Source: a virus | IMG/VR virus record: IMGVR_UViG_3300046787_000129 | Location: 1 to 64,000 of that record | DNA: 64,000 bases | Reading direction: 5' to 3' (one strand) | Shown: positions 4,691-19,507 of the stretch, one piece after another | Layout of the letters: every line of letters starts with the position of its first letter | How positions within the stretch are numbered: position 1 is the stretch's first letter | Translations under genes and position numbers: made by a program | Notes under the pieces: model-generated | Databases searched by the model: none | Told to the model about the DNA's origin: nothing | What the model saw: only the letters and a program-made list of their open reading frames with translations

Positions 4691-4755
4691 ATTTTCGGGG
4701 AATCAAGAATGATCTTCGTAATCCCTAGTATAAACTAAACCTAGTAAAAGAAATA

Positions 4756-4790
4756 ACCCTAGTCTAAATACATAATGGCTAGGGTTTTTT
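4756..4790 (+). terminator. intrinsic terminator
   Basis: AACCCTAGTC...GGCTAGGGTT then T-run. Confidence 0.65.
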
Positions 4791-5592
4791 GCTATCCAGG
4801 ATATGTCTGATATAACACCATATAAGGCTACAGGAGACCTCAGAGATATACACCATACCCAATGAACAGGTTAATGTTATACCCCCTCAGATTGGCACAC
4901 AGGGCTATTTAGACTATGTTTTATAGATAGTTATCCACAGATATGTCTTACTGTTGTTGATAACTTATCTCATTAAGAGATGTTGGGAAATGAAGTATGG
5001 GTAATTATGCACACTATATCGTAAATGTCAAGCTTTTTGCATAATATTCTGTCTAGCCCCATGTTTTCCGCATGATCTTCTGTTGATATATATGCCCATA
5101 TATTATTGATAATAATTCTCATTAACATATATCTTTTGGGGAAATATATGCCCATTCGTAATCCTTTTTAATATAAACATATATAAAATATGGGCAAATA
5201 AAAACCCCTATCGTAATGTATTATTACTAGGGGTATATTTACTACTAGGGAGTGTTCTTATATCAAGAGATGATCTATCTACCCTGGCCTTTGGCCACAA
5301 GCAAAGCTTGTATATATCTTTATATTAACAGTGTTATAGATCTGGGGGATTTAAAGATAGGATCGTAATCCCTATAGGTAGTATATACAATACATCTTTG
5401 ATCTCTTACGATCGTTTAGCTCAATAAACAATCGTATGGAAACATGTAAAGAAAAAGCCATATATTTTACATATCAAGCTGACGTGTAAAGTATATAGCG
5501 TTTATTTGTTATATCTTATACTAGGGATTATAGAGCTTGATCGTAAATACCCCCAACTTCTGGGATTTTTTAGAGTCCTTCGTAATGTCCTA

Positions 5593-5621
5593 TTGACAAA
5601 TGGGTTATTCTTTGTTATAAT
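5593..5621 (+). promoter_or_regulatory. consensus sigma-A promoter facing the early genes (antisense)
   Basis: TTGACA-N17-TATAAT with extended TG. Confidence 0.7.
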
Positions 5622-5677
5622 ACGATTGGGTCGGCCATGCCCTGCCCCCTCCGAAGAGGGGACAGAGACTGTTTATC

Positions 5678-7884: not shown

Positions 7885-8220
7885 TTACTCATTTGTCAAG
7901 TCTTTTAGCAAAAAACCTGGGAAAGAATAATCTGTATCCTGATAGGTAACAATGCCACCAGGGAAATCTACAACGATAGGGTCATAGGATTCTTCGCCAC
8001 ATTCGTAACTAGATAGACCATAGCCAGTTTCACTATTCCAATCGTTGCCAATCAGCTGCGAGACAACGATACGCATAGCATAAGATGTGTCACCCCAGCG
8101 TGGTTCAGCTTTTGCGAGGGCAGATTGAAGGTCCGTAATCTTGCTATCTCCACCCCAGTGTGAATACAACCATACACTGCCTTTAGAGTCTCGTAATTCA
8201 AAGTTAGTACGTGCTCCCAT
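7885..8220 (-). CDS. phage hypothetical protein (LYSHWGG motif)
   Basis: 111 aa, AAGGAG RBS. Confidence 0.75.
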   Translation of the reverse strand: MGARTNFELRDSKGSVWLYSHWGGDSKITDLQSALAKAEPRWGDTSYAMRIVVSQLIGNDWNSETGYGLSSYECGEESYDPIVVDFPGGIVTYQDTDYSFPGFLLKDLTNE

Positions 8221-9395: not shown

Positions 9396-9550
9396 AAGAG
9401 ACTTCTTTCTTTAGTGGGTTATCTTGATGTATAACTAGATTACCAAAGAAACTAGTGTTTGTCAAGACTATTTAGCAAAATATTTTGGCGTGTCTTAAAG
9501 CTTATCGTAACTTGATCAGGAATAAAGGGGGCAGGGGCCGACCCCAAAAG

Positions 9551-14694: not shown

Positions 14695-14844
14695 TTATTC
14701 TTCGTCTAGCAGATACTCTAGGAAATCATAGGCTTCGACAGCCTCGACAATGGTCATTAGACCTTTATAGTCGTTACACTCAGGGCAGACCATAACGCTT
14801 TCTGGGTATAGATTTTCACAGTAGACACAAACGTTCTTGAACAT
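14695..14844 (-). CDS. Zn-ribbon microprotein (49 aa)
   Basis: CVYC...CPEC; GAGGT RBS. Confidence 0.65.
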   Translation of the reverse strand: MFKNVCVYCENLYPESVMVCPECNDYKGLMTIVEAVEAYDFLEYLLDEE

Positions 14845-15002
14845 TTATTACCTCTTTCTTTGTTACTATAAATCTAGCATAGGGGTCAGACATTTAACCC
14901 CCGATCTTTCTAGGAATCTTAGAACGTTATCTTAACGTTACGTAAATAGTTATTAACAGAGTTATCCACAGGGCCGACCACACCCGAAGGTGTTTGTCAA
15001 GT

Positions 15003-15263
15003 CTACTCCTGAAAGAAGCTTGGGGGATTGTCATCCCAGTCTGGCTCAGAGTAGTTAGGGTCGTTCTCGAAACGGAAGAATTCTTCGGTGGTGCAGTTGT
15101 GGTCATCCATGGTTATCTCCATTCGTTAGGGTCAAAGTCGAAAGGGCTATAGGCATCTGAGCCACAGCCACAGCAAGGGCGGTCTTCGCAATCACACATT
15201 TGGGTCTCCTTCTGATAGAAAGTCTTGGATGTCTTCATCTGTAAAATCACCGTATCTAGCCAT
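15003..15263 (-). CDS. three coupled microproteins (15192-15263, 15113-15199 with CEDRPCCGC, 15003-15110)
   Basis: Read by hand; the first is leaderless, the others follow GGAG. Confidence 0.5.
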
Positions 15264-15421
15264 GTGATAAATCTAACACACATGTCAGACATTTACAAAT
15301 CCAACACGCCGCTTTCGGGGATTCTGTGGATCGATCTTAACTAACGTAACTTGACAAAAGTGGGTCCAGGGGCCGACTTTTTTAGCTGATTTGTCAAATC
15401 GACACGCCGATAAAAAGTGGA

Positions 15422-15517
15422 TTATTTTTCTGGGGTAGCGATAGCGGTTTCTAGGGTAACAATTCCAGCAATAGCCTTATCAAACTCTTCCCAAGTGTCA
15501 AAAGTAAGTTCAATCAT
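15422..15517 (-). CDS. microprotein (31 aa)
   Basis: MIELTFDTWEEFDKAIA... Confidence 0.5.
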   Translation of the reverse strand: MIELTFDTWEEFDKAIAGIVTLETAIATPEK

Positions 15518-15520
15518 TCT

Positions 15521-15712
15521 CTAAGCCTTTCCAATGATGTTTTCGTTGTAGTAGCGAACAACCTCGCCAACAGCCTTAGTCCCGTATACTCGGATAACTC
15601 GCTGATACTCGTCAGAGGCTTCTTTTATCTCTCGGTTATCGTTGCCCATTGAAGCAACGTGGTAGTTAGAAACTACCTTGTAAATCTCATCAGTAATCTG
15701 ACCTAGGTTCAT
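15521..15712 (-). CDS. hypothetical protein
   Basis: Probable start MNLGQ. Confidence 0.6.
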   Translation of the reverse strand: MNLGQITDEIYKVVSNYHVASMGNDNREIKEASDEYQRVIRVYGTKAVGEVVRYYNENIIGKA

Positions 15713-15763
15713 TTCATTTCTCATTTCTTTTGTTACTAACAGTCTAGGGGTTGGGTCAGACAA

Positions 15764-15880
15764 TTAGGCTGTTACACCGTATTGTGCTACGCAAGACTCG
15801 CAAGCCTTTTCGTTGTTGTAGAGGTTACCCTCGCAGATTACACAGTGTCCTGTTGCTACATTTACCTTTAGTGAGTTCAT
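15764..15880 (-). CDS. Zn-finger microprotein (38 aa)
   Basis: CVIC...CESC; AAGGAG RBS. Confidence 0.6.
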   Translation of the reverse strand: MNSLKVNVATGHCVICEGNLYNNEKACESCVAQYGVTA

Positions 15881-16456
15881 CTTGAACTCCTTTCTTTTTT
15901 ATTTCTTTTTCTTTATCTATATATATTTAAACATACATTATGCGATTTGTCAAGTCTATTTGGTAACAAACTTATAACGGTTTTTTTAGAGATATCATAC
16001 AAGACTTATCCACAGAGTTATCCACAGGGCCGACCCCTTTCGGGATCGTTTGTCAAGCTGACACGCCGTGTCCTAGAGAAATAAGAAGGCCATCACGAAA
16101 CTTGAAAATGTCTTCTTCGCTTAGGTGCTTTAGAAAAAAGGTGTTGTGGTATTTGCGAATAAATAGAAGGGCACAATCAAGGCAATTGCTACTGCCAAGG
16201 CAACCGCACATTAGTTTCCCCTAGTGCGGTATAGGCTAACAAAAGCGGTAATGGCAAAAGCAACCATTACAATCTGAAGGATAGAGGTTGCTAGGCGTGT
16301 GATGTCCATTAGGGTTACTCGCTTTCTGGGGTAGTGAATAGGTCTGAAGGGTTAGATAGCATTAGGTCAATCTTGAAGATTAGTTCTTCTAGTTCTTGGG
16401 TAGTCATTTTTGTTACCTTTCTTGATTACTTAGATTCTATTACAGGGGTCAGACAA

Positions 16457-16651
16457 TTAGGCGTTCGGGCCATACCAGATACGGACAACCAAAGCGGTAG
16501 CAAAGCCAAAGAACACTAGCCCAGCGATGAACGCTACTGAAGCCATCTCATAGATACCATCTAGACATAGGTCAATAGAGAATGCCATTAGGGTGAAGAA
16601 TACGGTTGAAGCGAATAGGAGGATGAAGTTCTGGATTGAGTAACGAGACAT
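16457..16651 (-). CDS. two-TM membrane protein
   Basis: Two hydrophobic segments. Confidence 0.65.
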   Translation of the reverse strand: MSRYSIQNFILLFASTVFFTLMAFSIDLCLDGIYEMASVAFIAGLVFFGFATALVVRIWYGPNA

Positions 16652-16710
16652 TTTCTGTTCTTTCTTTTAGGTTATGTATTTATCTTAGTATGTGCCTAGG
16701 ACATTGTCAA

Positions 16711-16845
16711 CTAGGATAGGGTCTCAATCATCACGATTGTGTAACCCTGAGCCTCTAGGTTCTTGACTACTGTTTCTTCCATTGAAGCAGGGTAAGCAGC
16801 AGAGGTTAGTGGGCTTGTTGGGTGAGTCATTGTGATTCTTAGCAT
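16711..16845 (-). CDS. microprotein (44 aa), first gene of the leftward region
   Basis: MLRITMTHP...; own promoter 16877-16905. Confidence 0.55.
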   Translation of the reverse strand: MLRITMTHPTSPLTSAAYPASMEETVVKNLEAQGYTIVMIETLS

Positions 16846-17104
16846 TTGTATTTCTTCTTTCTTTCTTTATACCTAAAGCCTATACCCTACCTAGGACATT
16901 GTCAATACGACACGCCGATAAATGGGAAAGTTTTTTAACAATCTTAGATAGTTATCCACAGAGTTATCCACAGGGCCGACCCCATGGGTCGCCATTTGTC
17001 AAGCCTATTTAGATAACGATTAGATAACAAACAATGTGATCGAGATCGCCCATATTGTCGGGGGTATCTGATAGGCTATACCCATATAGAGAAAGGTACC
17101 ACAC

Positions 17105-17223
17105 ATGACCATAGAACAATCAATCGCATTCATTATATTCATTATCGCTATCACTATCGCCTAATGGAATGGGTTATCTTGGCAGTAGTAGTAGCCATCC
17201 TTGTCATGGTGAAGGATAGCTAA
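17105..17223 (+). CDS. two 19-aa hydrophobic micropeptides (17105-17164, 17164-17223)
   Basis: MTIEQSIAFIIFIIAITIA and MEWVILAVVVAILVMVKDS; GAAAGG RBS; TAATG coupling. Confidence 0.55.
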
Positions 17224-17347
17224 CGTTATGAATCTGTTACAAAAAGATTTCCGACACGCCGTGTATGGATTTGACAAATGCTTAGTTATCTGATTAACTA
17301 TAGGTAGATAAATAAATAGTAAGTTTCAAAAAAGAAAGGACATTCAC

Positions 17348-17548
17348 ATGTCACTAGTTACACTAAACAACCAGGGTATCAAGGTTCTAGCAACCAACCC
17401 ATTCTTCTACTCATACCTAGAGTCATACCAATCTCTAGTATGCTGTGGTGAATACCAAGATGTTCACTACTGCTTCGCTCACAACACCAAGGCAGGATGT
17501 GCCTTCTGTGAGACCGATGTCTCAGCCCCTTGCGAGTGTGAAGGGTAA
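17348..17548 (+). CDS. Cys-rich hypothetical protein
   Basis: CC...HYC.AH...CAFC...CEC; AAGGA RBS. Confidence 0.7.
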   Translation: MSLVTLNNQGIKVLATNPFFYSYLESYQSLVCCGEYQDVHYCFAHNTKAGCAFCETDVSAPCECEG

Positions 17549-17747
17549 CACCTAAGCATTGGGTGTGCGTATATCCTGAGTTTGGGGTGTACGTACTGCC
17601 CTAGCAGTGTGCTCACTATATAAAATGTTGATTTTTATACGGAAACGTGTATCATACATCTCTAAAAAATATTCAGATTTTTGTCATTTTGGTTTTTGCA
17701 TAATTTTTCAGAATTTGCAAGATATATTTATAACGTTTGTATAACGT

Positions 17748-17954
17748 TTATGTTAAATCTTTGTTACGTAACTTAGTTTTTGCATAATTTTCACGGTATG
17801 CACGTACGTAACCTATCTGATATGCTACAAAAGCCTCTGTGGTAGGTCTTTTGTTGGAATAATATCTCTTTGCAGCTTCAAAAGCTTCTGCACGAAGAGA
17901 TTTTCCATCTGGCTCTGCAAAATATCGAAGGTATGTAATGAATTTCTTGATCAT
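17748..17954 (-). CDS. basic hypothetical protein, leaderless
   Basis: TATAAT 6 nt before ATG. Confidence 0.65.
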   Translation of the reverse strand: MIKKFITYLRYFAEPDGKSLRAEAFEAAKRYYSNKRPTTEAFVAYQIGYVRAYRENYAKTKLRNKDLT

Positions 17955-18011
17955 GGACTCATTATACTGTAATTTGCAACGGTAAACCTATAAAAATGTT
18001 ATAATTGCGTT

Positions 18012-18065
18012 ATGAAAACAAATCCTGAATGCAAATGCGATAACTGCAAGTGCGGTAAAGCCTAA
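18012..18065 (+). CDS. 17-aa metallothionein-like micropeptide
   Basis: MKTNPECKCDNCKCGKA; TGTTATAAT 6 nt before ATG. Confidence 0.5.
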   Translation: MKTNPECKCDNCKCGKA

Positions 18066-18149
18066 GTTCTTGTACTATATCGTACAAATAGCATAAATAT
18101 AGCCATCCATATCACTGATGCTGCTATGCCTAGCAAAACATATCCAATT

Positions 18150-18356
18150 TTACGAATCAACACGGATTCCAAACTCTTTGAGCTTAAGATTTACTAATTT
18201 TGTAGAAATATTCAGATAATTGGCTACGCCAGACACAGTTTTAAGCTCGTCTACAAGATTTACAAGGTTTTCCTTGTTGTGGTGTGGCTTTGTGTTACGA
18301 AAATCGTTCAATTCTTTGTTTGCCAGATCATTCTGATCAGGGATCTTGGATTCCAT
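18150..18356 (-). CDS. small HTH (Fis-like) DNA-binding protein
   Basis: TVSGVANYLNISTKLVNLKLKEFGI. Confidence 0.6.
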   Translation of the reverse strand: MESKIPDQNDLANKELNDFRNTKPHHNKENLVNLVDELKTVSGVANYLNISTKLVNLKLKEFGIRVDS

Positions 18357-18426
18357 GTCTCTCCTTATGGTTTAGTTTAAATTTTTCGGGGAATCAATCA
18401 TCTCTGATGATCTTTTGAGCAAATGC

Positions 18427-18663
18427 TCACCATTTCTGTATAGGACAATGAGCTCTCTCAAGAGTAGTCTTGAGTCTCATAAAACATCCACACTTGGTGC
18501 ATTGCTCTAATCGATGATTAAAGAATTCACAGCTACGACAGATGGCCAACCTATCTTCTTTAAGCTGAGAATCGCTTCTAGGCTCCTTTGGATTGAATAG
18601 TGATAAGAACTGTACATCTTTCTTATTATTCGCTCCTGGGGCATCCTGTGGCTTCTCCGACAT
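18427..18663 (-). CDS. DUF6171-like Cys protein, paralog 1
   Basis: R..ICRSC...QCTKCGCFM.LKT....CP..KW. Confidence 0.75.
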   Translation of the reverse strand: MSEKPQDAPGANNKKDVQFLSLFNPKEPRSDSQLKEDRLAICRSCEFFNHRLEQCTKCGCFMRLKTTLERAHCPIQKW

Positions 18664-18905
18664 GTTTCTATATTAGCACAAAGCTTTAAACTTTGCAAAC
18701 ATATATCCGCAAATCTTAAAACCATATTTAATAAAATCTTAAAACTATATTTATATATTTCTACCTATGTGAATGCTTGCATTCAAAGTGTAGATGGTTA
18801 CTCTTATTCCGCCGAATTTTTCGCCGCTTCTTTTTGTTCCATTTTGCGAACTTATCCACATAGTTATCCACAGGTGTTTAAATATTCATTTATAATTGTA
18901 CTATT

Positions 18906-19193
18906 ATGAGTTTTACTGATTGGGCTGGATTTATTCTAACAAGTTTGTCAATACTTGCTATCCTCGGTATAGGACTCAGATGGGTAATTAGACATTACCT
19001 AAAAGATATACTTCATGAAGTCAAACCTAACAGTGGTCAATCAATAAAAGATCAGGTTACTAGACTGGAAAAGAATTTCTCTAAAATAGAACATCAGCAA
19101 ATAGAAGCAGATCTTCTTAGAAAAGAAATGAATAAAAAAATAGATCACATGTACGATGTTCTATTAGATTACATTTCAAAATCAAGTAGATAA
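18906..19193 (+). CDS. single-TM coiled-coil membrane protein (holin-like/lysis accessory?)
   Basis: N-terminal TM, KPNSGQSIKDQVTRLE. Confidence 0.55.
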   Translation: MSFTDWAGFILTSLSILAILGIGLRWVIRHYLKDILHEVKPNSGQSIKDQVTRLEKNFSKIEHQQIEADLLRKEMNKKIDHMYDVLLDYISKSSR

Positions 19194-19425
19194 TCAGGCT
19201 GCCGAGAAGGCTGCGATCTGATTATATTTATTATATATAAAAGCTATATAGCTAGTAAAACATATCTTATATATTATTTCTTTTATTTATTAATTATATA
19301 TAAGATAGCACACAAATTTACTTTGTCAACACTTTTTTAATATATTTTCATATATCTTTTTTATAACAATTTAATAGTTGTGTATTATAAACAAACAAAC
19401 TCAAAGTTTATGGTATACTTTATAC

Positions 19426-19478
19426 AACTGGTGCCCAGGTTTGTCTCTCATACCCACCGACTTGGGCATCAGTTTTTA
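19426..19478 (+). ncRNA. candidate ~50-nt hairpin sRNA
   Basis: TGGTATACT promoter at 19411; 15-bp stem with G-U pairs on + strand; loop UGUCUCUCAUACCCACC; U-run. Confidence 0.55.
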
Positions 19479-19507
19479 TTTTATTTTAGTGATATAATTG
19501 AGGTAAT

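Follow-up and report, generated by a model that had tools for sequence, protein, structure and literature searches.

Phages that exploit a single host regulator are known: phi29 uses Spo0A, several prophages use LexA, and lambda uses DnaA at its pR promoter. In Bacillus phage phi29, Spo0A boxes and host parS-type sites located in early promoters and origins link lytic development to the physiological state of the host. Here we describe stacked and reiterated motifs in intergenic units of the early region of a virus from IMG/VR (record IMGVR_UViG_3300046787_000129), centered on positions 14,845 to 17,347 of the window, which comprises the first 64,000 nucleotides of this record. In contrast to the single regulator of the Firmicute phage, the units carry candidate sites for up to four actinobacterial regulators. 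We know of no phage described as carrying repeated stacks of consensus sites for multiple regulators of the cell cycle and the DNA-damage response, and literature searches that covered PafBC or DnaA boxes in phages and the promoters of cluster BE phages turned up no such multi-regulator stack.

Chromatin immunoprecipitation sequencing (ChIP-seq) and in vitro IDAP-seq in Mycobacterium tuberculosis yielded the motif GACACGCC for WhiA and WhiB2, an earlier data set gave CGACACGCCGn, and WhiA binds the recA, dnaB and dnaE1 promoters of this species (PMC13473873). The WhiA motif lies upstream of the -35 element with variable spacing and orientation, and WhiB bridges to sigma region 4 (PMC10243135). 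The PafBC motif, tGTCgg(N10)tA(N3)T, is found without a -35 element, and its GTC triplet is read by PafB (PMC8635444). DnaA of Escherichia coli prefers pairs of boxes 2–3 bp apart, and the bound protein can block an elongating polymerase (PMC11317965). For MtrA, the consensus is (A/G)TAACAATttn(A/G)TAACAAT in Corynebacterium glutamicum (PMC3353115) and (G/T)T(G/A)ACC-N5-GT(G/T)AC in Streptomyces (PMC5650626). Because MtrA binds oriC and dnaA in M. tuberculosis (as cited in PMC5650626), the neighborhood of DnaA and MtrA sites has a cellular precedent.

Stacked motifs in the leftward early arm

The intergenic unit at 16877–17031 contains all five elements that a preliminary description of this DNA had named: a PafBC-type promoter, a WhiA-like box, a DnaA pair, a core and an MtrA-like repeat. 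Direct reading of the sequence bore out the stacking and the place of each element, with GACACGCCG at 16909–16917, TTATCCACAGAGTTATCCACA at 16952–16972, the core GGCCGACC at 16974–16981 and ATAACGATTAGATAACAAA at 17013–17031. The motif set is repeated in units 14871–15001 and 15925–16072, unit 15270–15409 is a rearranged variant, and motif-bearing intergenic units span 9.4–19 kb. The order had been described as fixed. This holds along the transcribed (minus) strand only, where a WhiA-type box is followed by CTTGACAA, about 24 nucleotides of GC-rich sequence, the DnaA pair, 11-bp repeats, a WhiA-type box and the promoter; however, the WhiA-type box and the 11-bp repeats switch sides of the DnaA pair between units. 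The earlier account was also incomplete in that it overlooked the CTTGACAA arm, which belongs to a boundary element described below.

Expected motif counts were obtained from 100 simulations of the whole genome under a second-order Markov model, with 10.0–19.5 kb as the segment of interest. Exact TTATCCACA, the DnaA box, occurs ten times in the genome and seven times in the segment, where 0.07 copies are expected. All three double boxes with both members exact lie in the segment (none expected), as do all twelve copies of TGTC[GT]G-N10-TAnnnT (0.2 expected there) and all five copies of GACACGCCG (0.05 expected genome-wide). GGCCGACC has six of its nine copies in the segment (0.6 expected genome-wide), and RTAAC-N6-RTAAC seven of nine (1.1 expected genome-wide and 0.1 in the segment).

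Pattern scans found the same motif set and order in a dozen related IMG/VR contigs of 35–44% GC, which were reached through a scan for TTGACAAA-N15-TCGGCCC that otherwise returned mainly chance singletons. A four-way alignment of the 16.85–17.09 kb unit shows little or no change in the boxes, whereas the intervening sequence diverges. Because the boxes are kept in this alignment, and the order recurs in relatives while the spacers change, we conclude that the stacking is real and under selection. Compared with its relatives the early arm is a mosaic of inserted, replaced and inverted blocks whose breakpoints fall at these elements. The block 17005–17240 is absent from three relatives (L013, L031 and L009) and carries a perfect PafBC-type promoter together with two open reading frames (ORFs) of 19 amino acids. 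The products of these ORFs (17105–17223; MTIEQSIAFIIFIIAITIA and MEWVILAVVVAILVMVKDS), encoded directly behind that promoter, are hydrophobic.

The conserved WhiA-type box, CGACACGCCG, is identical over ten nucleotides to the M. tuberculosis WhiA/WhiB2 consensus. The view that the likeness extends merely to GACAC was overturned by the published extended consensus (PMC13473873), and the WhiA-like box of the preliminary description gains from this match; we regard the predicted assignment to WhiA as strong. The consensus GACACGCC occurs ten times in the phage genome, nine of them within 9.4–17.3 kb and five in the form GACACGCCG. Two metagenome-assembled genomes (MAGs) of Ca. Nanopelagicus, each of about 1 Mb, have three and five copies, which is not above a reversed-pattern control, and the exact 10-mer is present five times in the phage versus zero to one time per Nanopelagicus MAG. 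The distance from the box to the -35 element is 3 nucleotides at TTGACA of the leftward promoter P_L, 8 at TTGACA of the rightward promoter P_R, and 21 before CTTGACAA at 9466 and 13836, and the remaining copies adjoin boundary elements. As in the WhiA/WhiB(2) promoters of Streptomyces sepX and M. tuberculosis recA, dnaB and dnaE1, the consensus is upstream of the -35 element in either orientation, and the phage supplies a WhiB-family (Wbl) protein of its own. In contrast to those promoters, the phage sites are predicted ones and number nine in 8 kb, some stand beside CTTGACAA boundary elements that have no -10 element, and some are palindromic (GACACGCCGTGTC).

The same 10-mer, in either orientation, also precedes recA in four genomes of Actinobacteria with 43–61% GC (L255–L258), where it stands about 20 nucleotides ahead of the LexA SOS box; these are two Ca. 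Nanopelagicus MAGs, a river Actinomycetota MAG and Humidisolicoccus flavus. In all four regions a GTC-N12-TAnnnT promoter is present farther upstream. We also considered a sigma-28/WhiG -10 element (GCCGATAA) inside GACACGCCGATAA and rejected it, as it is found in just two of five copies and has no TAAA at -35.

Fourteen promoters carry TGTC exactly 12 nucleotides before a TAnnnT -10 element, with the general form TGTC(T/G)G-N10-TAnnnT. Eleven of these lack a -35 element (three or fewer of six matches), a twelfth has four of six matches, and two hybrids (16682 and 16877) have a perfect TTGACA at 17 bp. The eleven without a -35 element share the consensus TAAATGTCTGAC-N8-TAnnnT. This geometry is identical to that of the PafBC motif, with the sequence off at one weakly conserved position in most copies (TGTCTG rather than TGTCGG) and perfect in the copy at 17056, TGTCGG-N10-TAGGCT. 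On this comparison the PafBC-type promoter that had been proposed earlier appears to be a good match. The phage promoters differ from PafBC (RecA-NDp) promoters by extra conserved bases (TAAA before and AC after), by the perfect -35 elements of the two hybrids and by their new phage context. A promoter of the same kind precedes recA in the candidate hosts: in two Ca. Nanopelagicus MAGs, which have tandem WYL genes of the pafBC kind, the gene follows CCGTCAGTG-N8-TACCTT. Promoters with a consensus -35 element are interspersed at 7893, 9459, 12592, 13829 and 15947 and as P_L and P_R. By analogy with early and middle transcription in phage T4, this suggests two temporal classes of promoters.

The DnaA boxes form four pairs (14950, 16006, 16952 and 18852), all on the plus strand and all of the form TTATCCACA-3 bp-TTATCCACA, except that the first box at 14950 is TTATTAACA. 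Seven exact copies of TTATCCACA are found within 14962–18864, again all on the plus strand. Three of the pairs directly follow boundary hairpins, and the pair at 18852 has neither a GC core nor CTTGACAA and is located outside any cassette boundary. Consensus boxes 3 bp apart have the geometry reported for E. coli (PMC11317965), which upholds the DnaA pair of the preliminary description, and we consider the predicted assignment to DnaA strong. The phage pairs resemble the double boxes of E. coli ChIP-seq sites and of the basal unwinding system in having same-orientation consensus 9-mers, a 3-bp spacer and then a GG or GC-rich sequence (PMC11317965, PMC8287927). Unlike those bacterial sites, they are located at gene boundaries and over a -35 element in a phage, and inspection for DnaA-trios (three or more NAN repeats within 16 bp of a box) showed no trinucleotide periodicity beyond the GC stretch, which is weak evidence because the criterion is loose.

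Clusters of TTATCCACA and double boxes with 3-bp spacing are also present in candidate-host MAGs. In addition, TTATCCACAnnnTTATCCACA is present in more than 118 mostly unrelated viral contigs in IMG/VR (28–66% GC), where AGTTATCCACAGnnTTATCCACAGG is the typical form and longer arrays are frequent. This favors recognition by the universal DnaA domain over recognition by a phage protein peculiar to one clade. A cellular counterpart of the phage stack is the dnaB promoter of a freshwater Actinomycetota MAG (L265:560-830), which has about nine DnaA boxes, including a double box with 3-bp spacing, as well as CGGCGTGTC.

The 11-bp repeats are the least certain of the predicted protein sites. They share an RTAAC core and an 11-bp period with the MtrA sites, and to this extent the MtrA-like repeat named earlier stands; however, they match only 12–14 of 16 positions of the full C. 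glutamicum consensus, a level at which hits are not enriched genome-wide. In the relatives the repeats adjoin the DnaA pair in helical phase. A dismissive view of the MtrA likeness was overturned by the published extended consensus, and the assignment, by sequence comparison, is moderate. The alternative that the RTAAC repeats are weak DnaA boxes was rejected, as they have at best four of nine matches.

The core GGCCGACC matches no known regulator site and is not the free-standing regulator box that it had been taken for. It is instead part of the boundary element: in about 40 such elements, from the window and from relatives, its distance to CTTGACAA is a fixed 15–17 nucleotides. The stretch between them is a hairpin with stems that are wholly different among copies and orthologues. 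The sense-strand loops have the sequence GAAA or UUCG (GNRA/UUCG) or consist of CUUGACAAA itself, and most long-stem copies fold better in the sense orientation (mean -16.7 versus -14.6 kcal/mol). Many copies have a second, inverted arm, TTGTCAAG, which in three units is replaced by the DnaA pair. A terminator scan found no intrinsic terminator (GC-rich hairpin and U-tract) at the boundary elements, and the hairpins have no T-run. We read the boundary element, from its sequence and position, as a putative transcript-end or insulator element.

Two other identities were rejected. An odd -10 or ECF-type promoter of the form TTGACA-N17-TCGGCC is contradicted by a hexamer that varies in relatives, by the sense-strand hairpin that fills the stretch and by absence from late genes. 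The likeness to L5 stoperators (GGTGGMTGTCAAG) is confined to one copy, the common part being the complement of the -35 element.

Small early ORFs flanked by a stem-loop and a promoter, with indels and swaps that break at the motifs, are also a feature of the PeSLs of T4-type phages (PMC2839356, PMC4122927). However, the sequences are unrelated, the host phylum is another one, the hairpins of the present phage have no U-tracts, and protein-site motifs have been added, such that the likeness is an analogy and not membership. A similar plan is found in the cluster BE phage Coruscant, in which a leftward arm holds small genes that each follow a terminator, an operator-like motif and a promoter. 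Before nearly every small gene of this arm (L161:1-11000) there is a terminator hairpin, the palindrome GGCGCCCGGCGCC, ATAGATGCAnnCTACATCTA and then CTTGCA...TGTAAGCT. The Coruscant arm differs in this palindrome and in its -10 element, TGTAAGCT, and has neither a cluster of DnaA boxes nor CGACACGCCG. By analogy, the layout of the present phage is that of host-regulator sites in phage control regions, a known kind, arranged like PeSL cassettes.

Table 1. Positions of predicted regulatory features in and near the early control region (window coordinates).
Feature	Position	Strand	Remarks
-26-type promoter TGTCTG-N10-TAGATT for gene 14695-14844	14871..14892	-	No -35
Repeat GTAACGTT-AAG-ATAACGTT	14923..14941	-	MtrA-like, 12/16
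DnaA double box TTATTAACA gag TTATCCACA	14950..14970	+	Two perfect boxes in L013 orthologue
CTTGACAA + hairpin ACACC-UUCG-GGUGU + GGTCGGCC	14972..15001	-	Just past stop of upstream gene (15003)
-26-type promoter TGTCTG-N10-TAGATT	15270..15291	-	Leaderless start at ~15265
Rearranged unit	15303..15409	-	CGGCGTGTT; inverted CTTGACAA arms 15350-15357 (+) and 15391-15398 (-); GGGCCGAC; WhiA-type box GACACGCCG 15401-15409 (+)
Sigma-A-type promoter CTTGACAA-N..-TTAAAT for gene 15764-15880	15925..15954	-	Putative -10
Repeat GTAACAAA-CTT-ATAACGGT	15963..15981	+	MtrA-like, 13/16; immediately upstream of -35 at 15954
DnaA double box, two perfect boxes	16006..16026	+	3-bp spacer
CTTGACAA + hairpin GAUCCC-GAAA-GGGGUC + GGTCGGCC	16028..16057	-	Boundary element
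WhiA-type box, palindromic GACACGCCGTGTC	16060..16072	+	Match to motif of PMC13473873
P_L leftward promoter TTGACAA-TGTCCTAGG-N7-TAGGCT	16877..16905	-	TTGACA-17-TAGGCT, TGTC 12 nucleotides before -10; kept in four relatives
WhiA-type box CGACACGCCG (16908-16917)	16909..16917	+	3 nucleotides upstream of P_L -35; invariant in four-way alignment
DnaA double box, two perfect boxes	16952..16972	+	Near-invariant in four-way alignment; one box is TTATACACA in L031
CTTGACAA + hairpin + GGTCGGCC	16974..17003	-	Boundary element holding the GGCCGACC core
Repeat ATAACGAT-TAG-ATAACAAA	17013..17031	+	14/16, best match to MtrA consensus in the genome
Rightward promoter TGTCGG-N10-TAGGCT	17056..17077	+	Perfect PafBC consensus; before two 19-amino-acid ORFs (17105-17223)
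Rightward control region for gene 17348-17548	17222..17299	+	Conserved in relatives
MtrA-like repeat	17222-17240	-	In 17222..17299 control region
WhiA-type box, palindromic CGACACGCCGTGT	17252-17264	+	In 17222..17299 control region
P_R promoter TTGACA-17-TTAACT	17271-17299	+	In 17222..17299 control region
Fourth DnaA double box	18852..18872	+	Overlaps -35 region of TATAAT promoter (18891-18896) of gene 18906-19193

The virus and its candidate hosts

The record is 109,629 bp long with 42.9% GC and is rated complete by CheckV. Its genome is of the siphovirus type, with a portal protein 47% identical to those of Streptomyces cluster BE phages (BoomerJR and Coruscant), and no near-identical phage is present among GenBank phages. 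Genes run leftward from about 5.7 to 16.85 kb and rightward from about 17.1 kb. The genome encodes a DnaB-type helicase, a primase, the alpha subunit of DNA polymerase III (Pol III), RecA, a class Ib ribonucleotide reductase and, at 92772–93059 of the record, the Wbl protein, a member of the WhiB family, which is confined to Actinobacteria. Phage NrdE shares 79–83% identity with proteins encoded by MAGs of freshwater Actinomycetota (Ca. Nanopelagicus and Microbacteriaceae). Several early genes are leaderless, starting 6–7 nucleotides past the -10 element, and leaderless genes are common in Actinobacteria. From the WhiB gene, the Streptomyces-phage-like portal, the kinship of NrdE, the leaderless starts and the low GC content, we infer a freshwater low-GC actinobacterium as the host, in agreement with the actinobacterial host assumed in the preliminary description. 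The closest NrdE (83%) is encoded on a 23-kb contig from Lake Mendota (L167) that is binned as a Beijerinckiaceae MAG and is probably a mis-binned relative of the present phage.

Six-frame searches of the phage found no DnaA domain IV, WYL domain, WhiA helix-turn-helix (HTH) domain or OmpR-type domain, and a Pfam search with 20 small early proteins matched only DUF932, DUF7178, DUF6171 and a weak TPR. Candidate hosts carry tandem WYL genes, and the WhiA HTH domain was found in three candidate-host MAGs.

Several other regions of the genome have distinctive features. Two convergent gene blocks are separated by about 1 kb of AT-rich non-coding sequence (4700–5625), which contains at least eight TCGTAAT-type repeats, one exact DnaA box (4931) and two boxes with eight of nine matches. 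It also has a perfect TTGACA-17-TATAAT promoter on the plus strand (5594–5622), followed by a GGTCGGCC hairpin. This region may serve as an origin or as a second control region. A block of 33–37% GC at 17560–19500 has small leftward genes, including one for a DUF6171 protein, and RTAAC 11-bp repeats at 17730, 17749 and 17995, and may be a separate regulatory module. The ends of the record (about 130–1000 in the window and about 108,750–109,629) are copies of one coding sequence that are about 95% identical, which could reflect imperfect terminal redundancy, paralogues or an effect of assembly.

Proposed control by host factors and its alternatives

We consider the units most readily explained as composite regulatory cassettes that serve the leftward early arm and the divergent control region at 16.88–17.30 kb, and through which early and middle transcription, and possibly the start of replication, would depend on host factors; we put the chance that this explanation is right at about even. 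Along the transcript, a boundary element consisting of CTTGACAA, a sense-strand RNA hairpin and GGTCGGCCC would close the upstream gene, docking sites for host proteins would follow, and the promoter of the next gene would come last. DnaA dimers on the double boxes with 3-bp spacing might act as a roadblock, a repressor or a seed for replication. WhiA, together with a Wbl partner from either the host or the phage, would act from CGACACGCCG ahead of consensus -35 elements. PafBC would bind the -26 TGTC of about a dozen promoters without a -35 element, which would fire only after single-stranded DNA activates PafBC. In T4, middle promoters depend on MotA; these phage promoters would likewise depend on PafBC. 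MtrA possibly binds the RTAAC repeats. The net effect would be to tie early and middle transcription, and perhaps the start of replication, to the replication, division and DNA-damage state of the host.

The sequence matches, their enrichment, their conservation and the absence of phage counterparts are direct observations, and from the sequence we infer which proteins bind and what binding does. Since no DNA-binding domain that would fit the docking sites is encoded by the phage, their most likely readers are host factors. Host proteins are also the simplest readers, since candidate hosts have WhiA and tandem WYL genes, and the phage has no counterparts. It is possible, however, that small phage proteins of novel fold are the readers. 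A further-reaching version is tentative: the virus would be a lytic phage of streamlined freshwater Actinobacteria whose early arm and central control region are wired to DnaA, WhiA with Wbl, PafBC and MtrA at once, and it would read the state of the host while its replication also drains these regulators. Such a drain is suggested because one phage genome has more consensus WhiA sites than a host chromosome.

Several observations weigh against control by host factors. The motifs were picked for their resemblance to known sites, which introduces a look-elsewhere effect, and the host is itself deduced from genome content. Matches to at least 12 of 16 positions of the MtrA consensus number 57 genome-wide versus 49 in simulations, and the difference between sense and antisense folding of the hairpins is marginal overall (Wilcoxon p = 0.07). 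The -26 element, TAAATGTCTGAC, extends beyond the PafBC motif and carries T at a position that is G in PafBC sites, and it could be the site of a phage protein. Most early-region phage proteins have no recognizable family, leaving room for a phage regulator with a novel fold.

The alternatives are partly compatible with each other and with control by host factors. The foremost, which we hold to be possible but rather doubtful, is an oriC-like origin between the divergent promoters at 16.88–17.30 kb, composed of DnaA pairs, MtrA-like repeats and WhiA boxes and with copies at 14.95, 16.0 and 18.85 kb. Host DnaA would open the DNA there for the phage helicase, primase and Pol III alpha, and such a function can coexist with host-factor control of transcription. 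The presence of these three replication proteins without a recognizable initiator is in keeping with an origin, as are the tandem consensus boxes followed by a GC-rich stretch, which are similar to the boxes of the bacterial basal unwinding system (PMC8287927), the binding of mycobacterial oriC by DnaA and MtrA (as cited in PMC5650626) and the double boxes in more than 118 unrelated viral contigs. However, the GC stretch is followed by neither DnaA-trio repeats nor an obvious AT-rich unwinding element, the pairs do not cluster but are dispersed among gene boundaries across 4 kb, the boxes are absent from cluster BE relatives, and the repeat-rich non-coding kilobase at 4.7–5.6 kb is at least an equal candidate.

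It is unlikely, in our view, that small early proteins of the phage bind TAAATGTCTGAC, CGACACGCCG and the RTAAC repeats, for example as a repressor that shuts off early genes from between -35 and -10, with only the DnaA boxes directed at the host and the remaining likeness due to mimicry or coincidence. The length of the promoter element beyond the PafBC motif would suit such proteins, dozens of small early ORFs without a family could encode them, Coruscant has reiterated operator-like motifs of unrelated sequence at the same position, and the palindromic copies of CGACACGCCG (GACACGCCGTGTC) would suit a dimeric repressor. Against this, CGACACGCCG is an exact 10-mer of an independently derived WhiA consensus that also occurs in the promoters of host recA and dnaB, the phage promoters keep the GTC-N12-TAnnnT spacing exactly, one of them with a perfect TGTCGG, and the six-frame searches found no HTH, WYL, OmpR or WhiA domain.

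Titration, which the preliminary description had offered as mass sequestration of the regulators beside a combinatorial gating of infection by host physiology, is a still less probable explanation. Hundreds of high-affinity DnaA, WhiA and MtrA sites generated by phage replication would drain the regulators of a small host chromosome and stall host replication and division. The excess of GACACGCC and of the exact 10-mer over the roughly 1-Mb MAGs, together with the four DnaA double boxes, fits this idea; however, the MAGs from which the counts come are incomplete, and the sites stand at precise positions relative to promoters (3 or 21 nucleotides from a -35 element, or over it), which a pure sink would not need. 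Least probable is that the units are only shuffling cassettes, promoter–terminator units like PeSLs in which the likeness to host sites is fortuitous or a functionless remnant of captured host DNA. In its favor, relatives have mosaic early arms in which inserted and replaced blocks and one inverted cassette have their breakpoints at the elements, and T4-type PeSLs share the layout (PMC2839356, PMC4122927). Against it, the exact boxes are kept across relatives where neighboring bases vary, recombination requires homology and not four distinct consensus protein sites, and the DnaA pair at 18852 is outside any cassette.

The exact WhiA 10-mer before recA in Nanopelagicus-like genomes extends the mycobacterial link between WhiA and recA to distant Actinobacteria. 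If control by host factors is correct, this virus would provide a testable model for a lytic actinophage that times its program to host physiology, and both the "sigma adaptation" by PafBC and the co-activation by WhiA and Wbl proteins would be mechanisms that viruses exploit. In that case the units, at about 200 bp, would also offer compact natural probes with which to study these regulators in freshwater Actinobacteria that have not been cultured.

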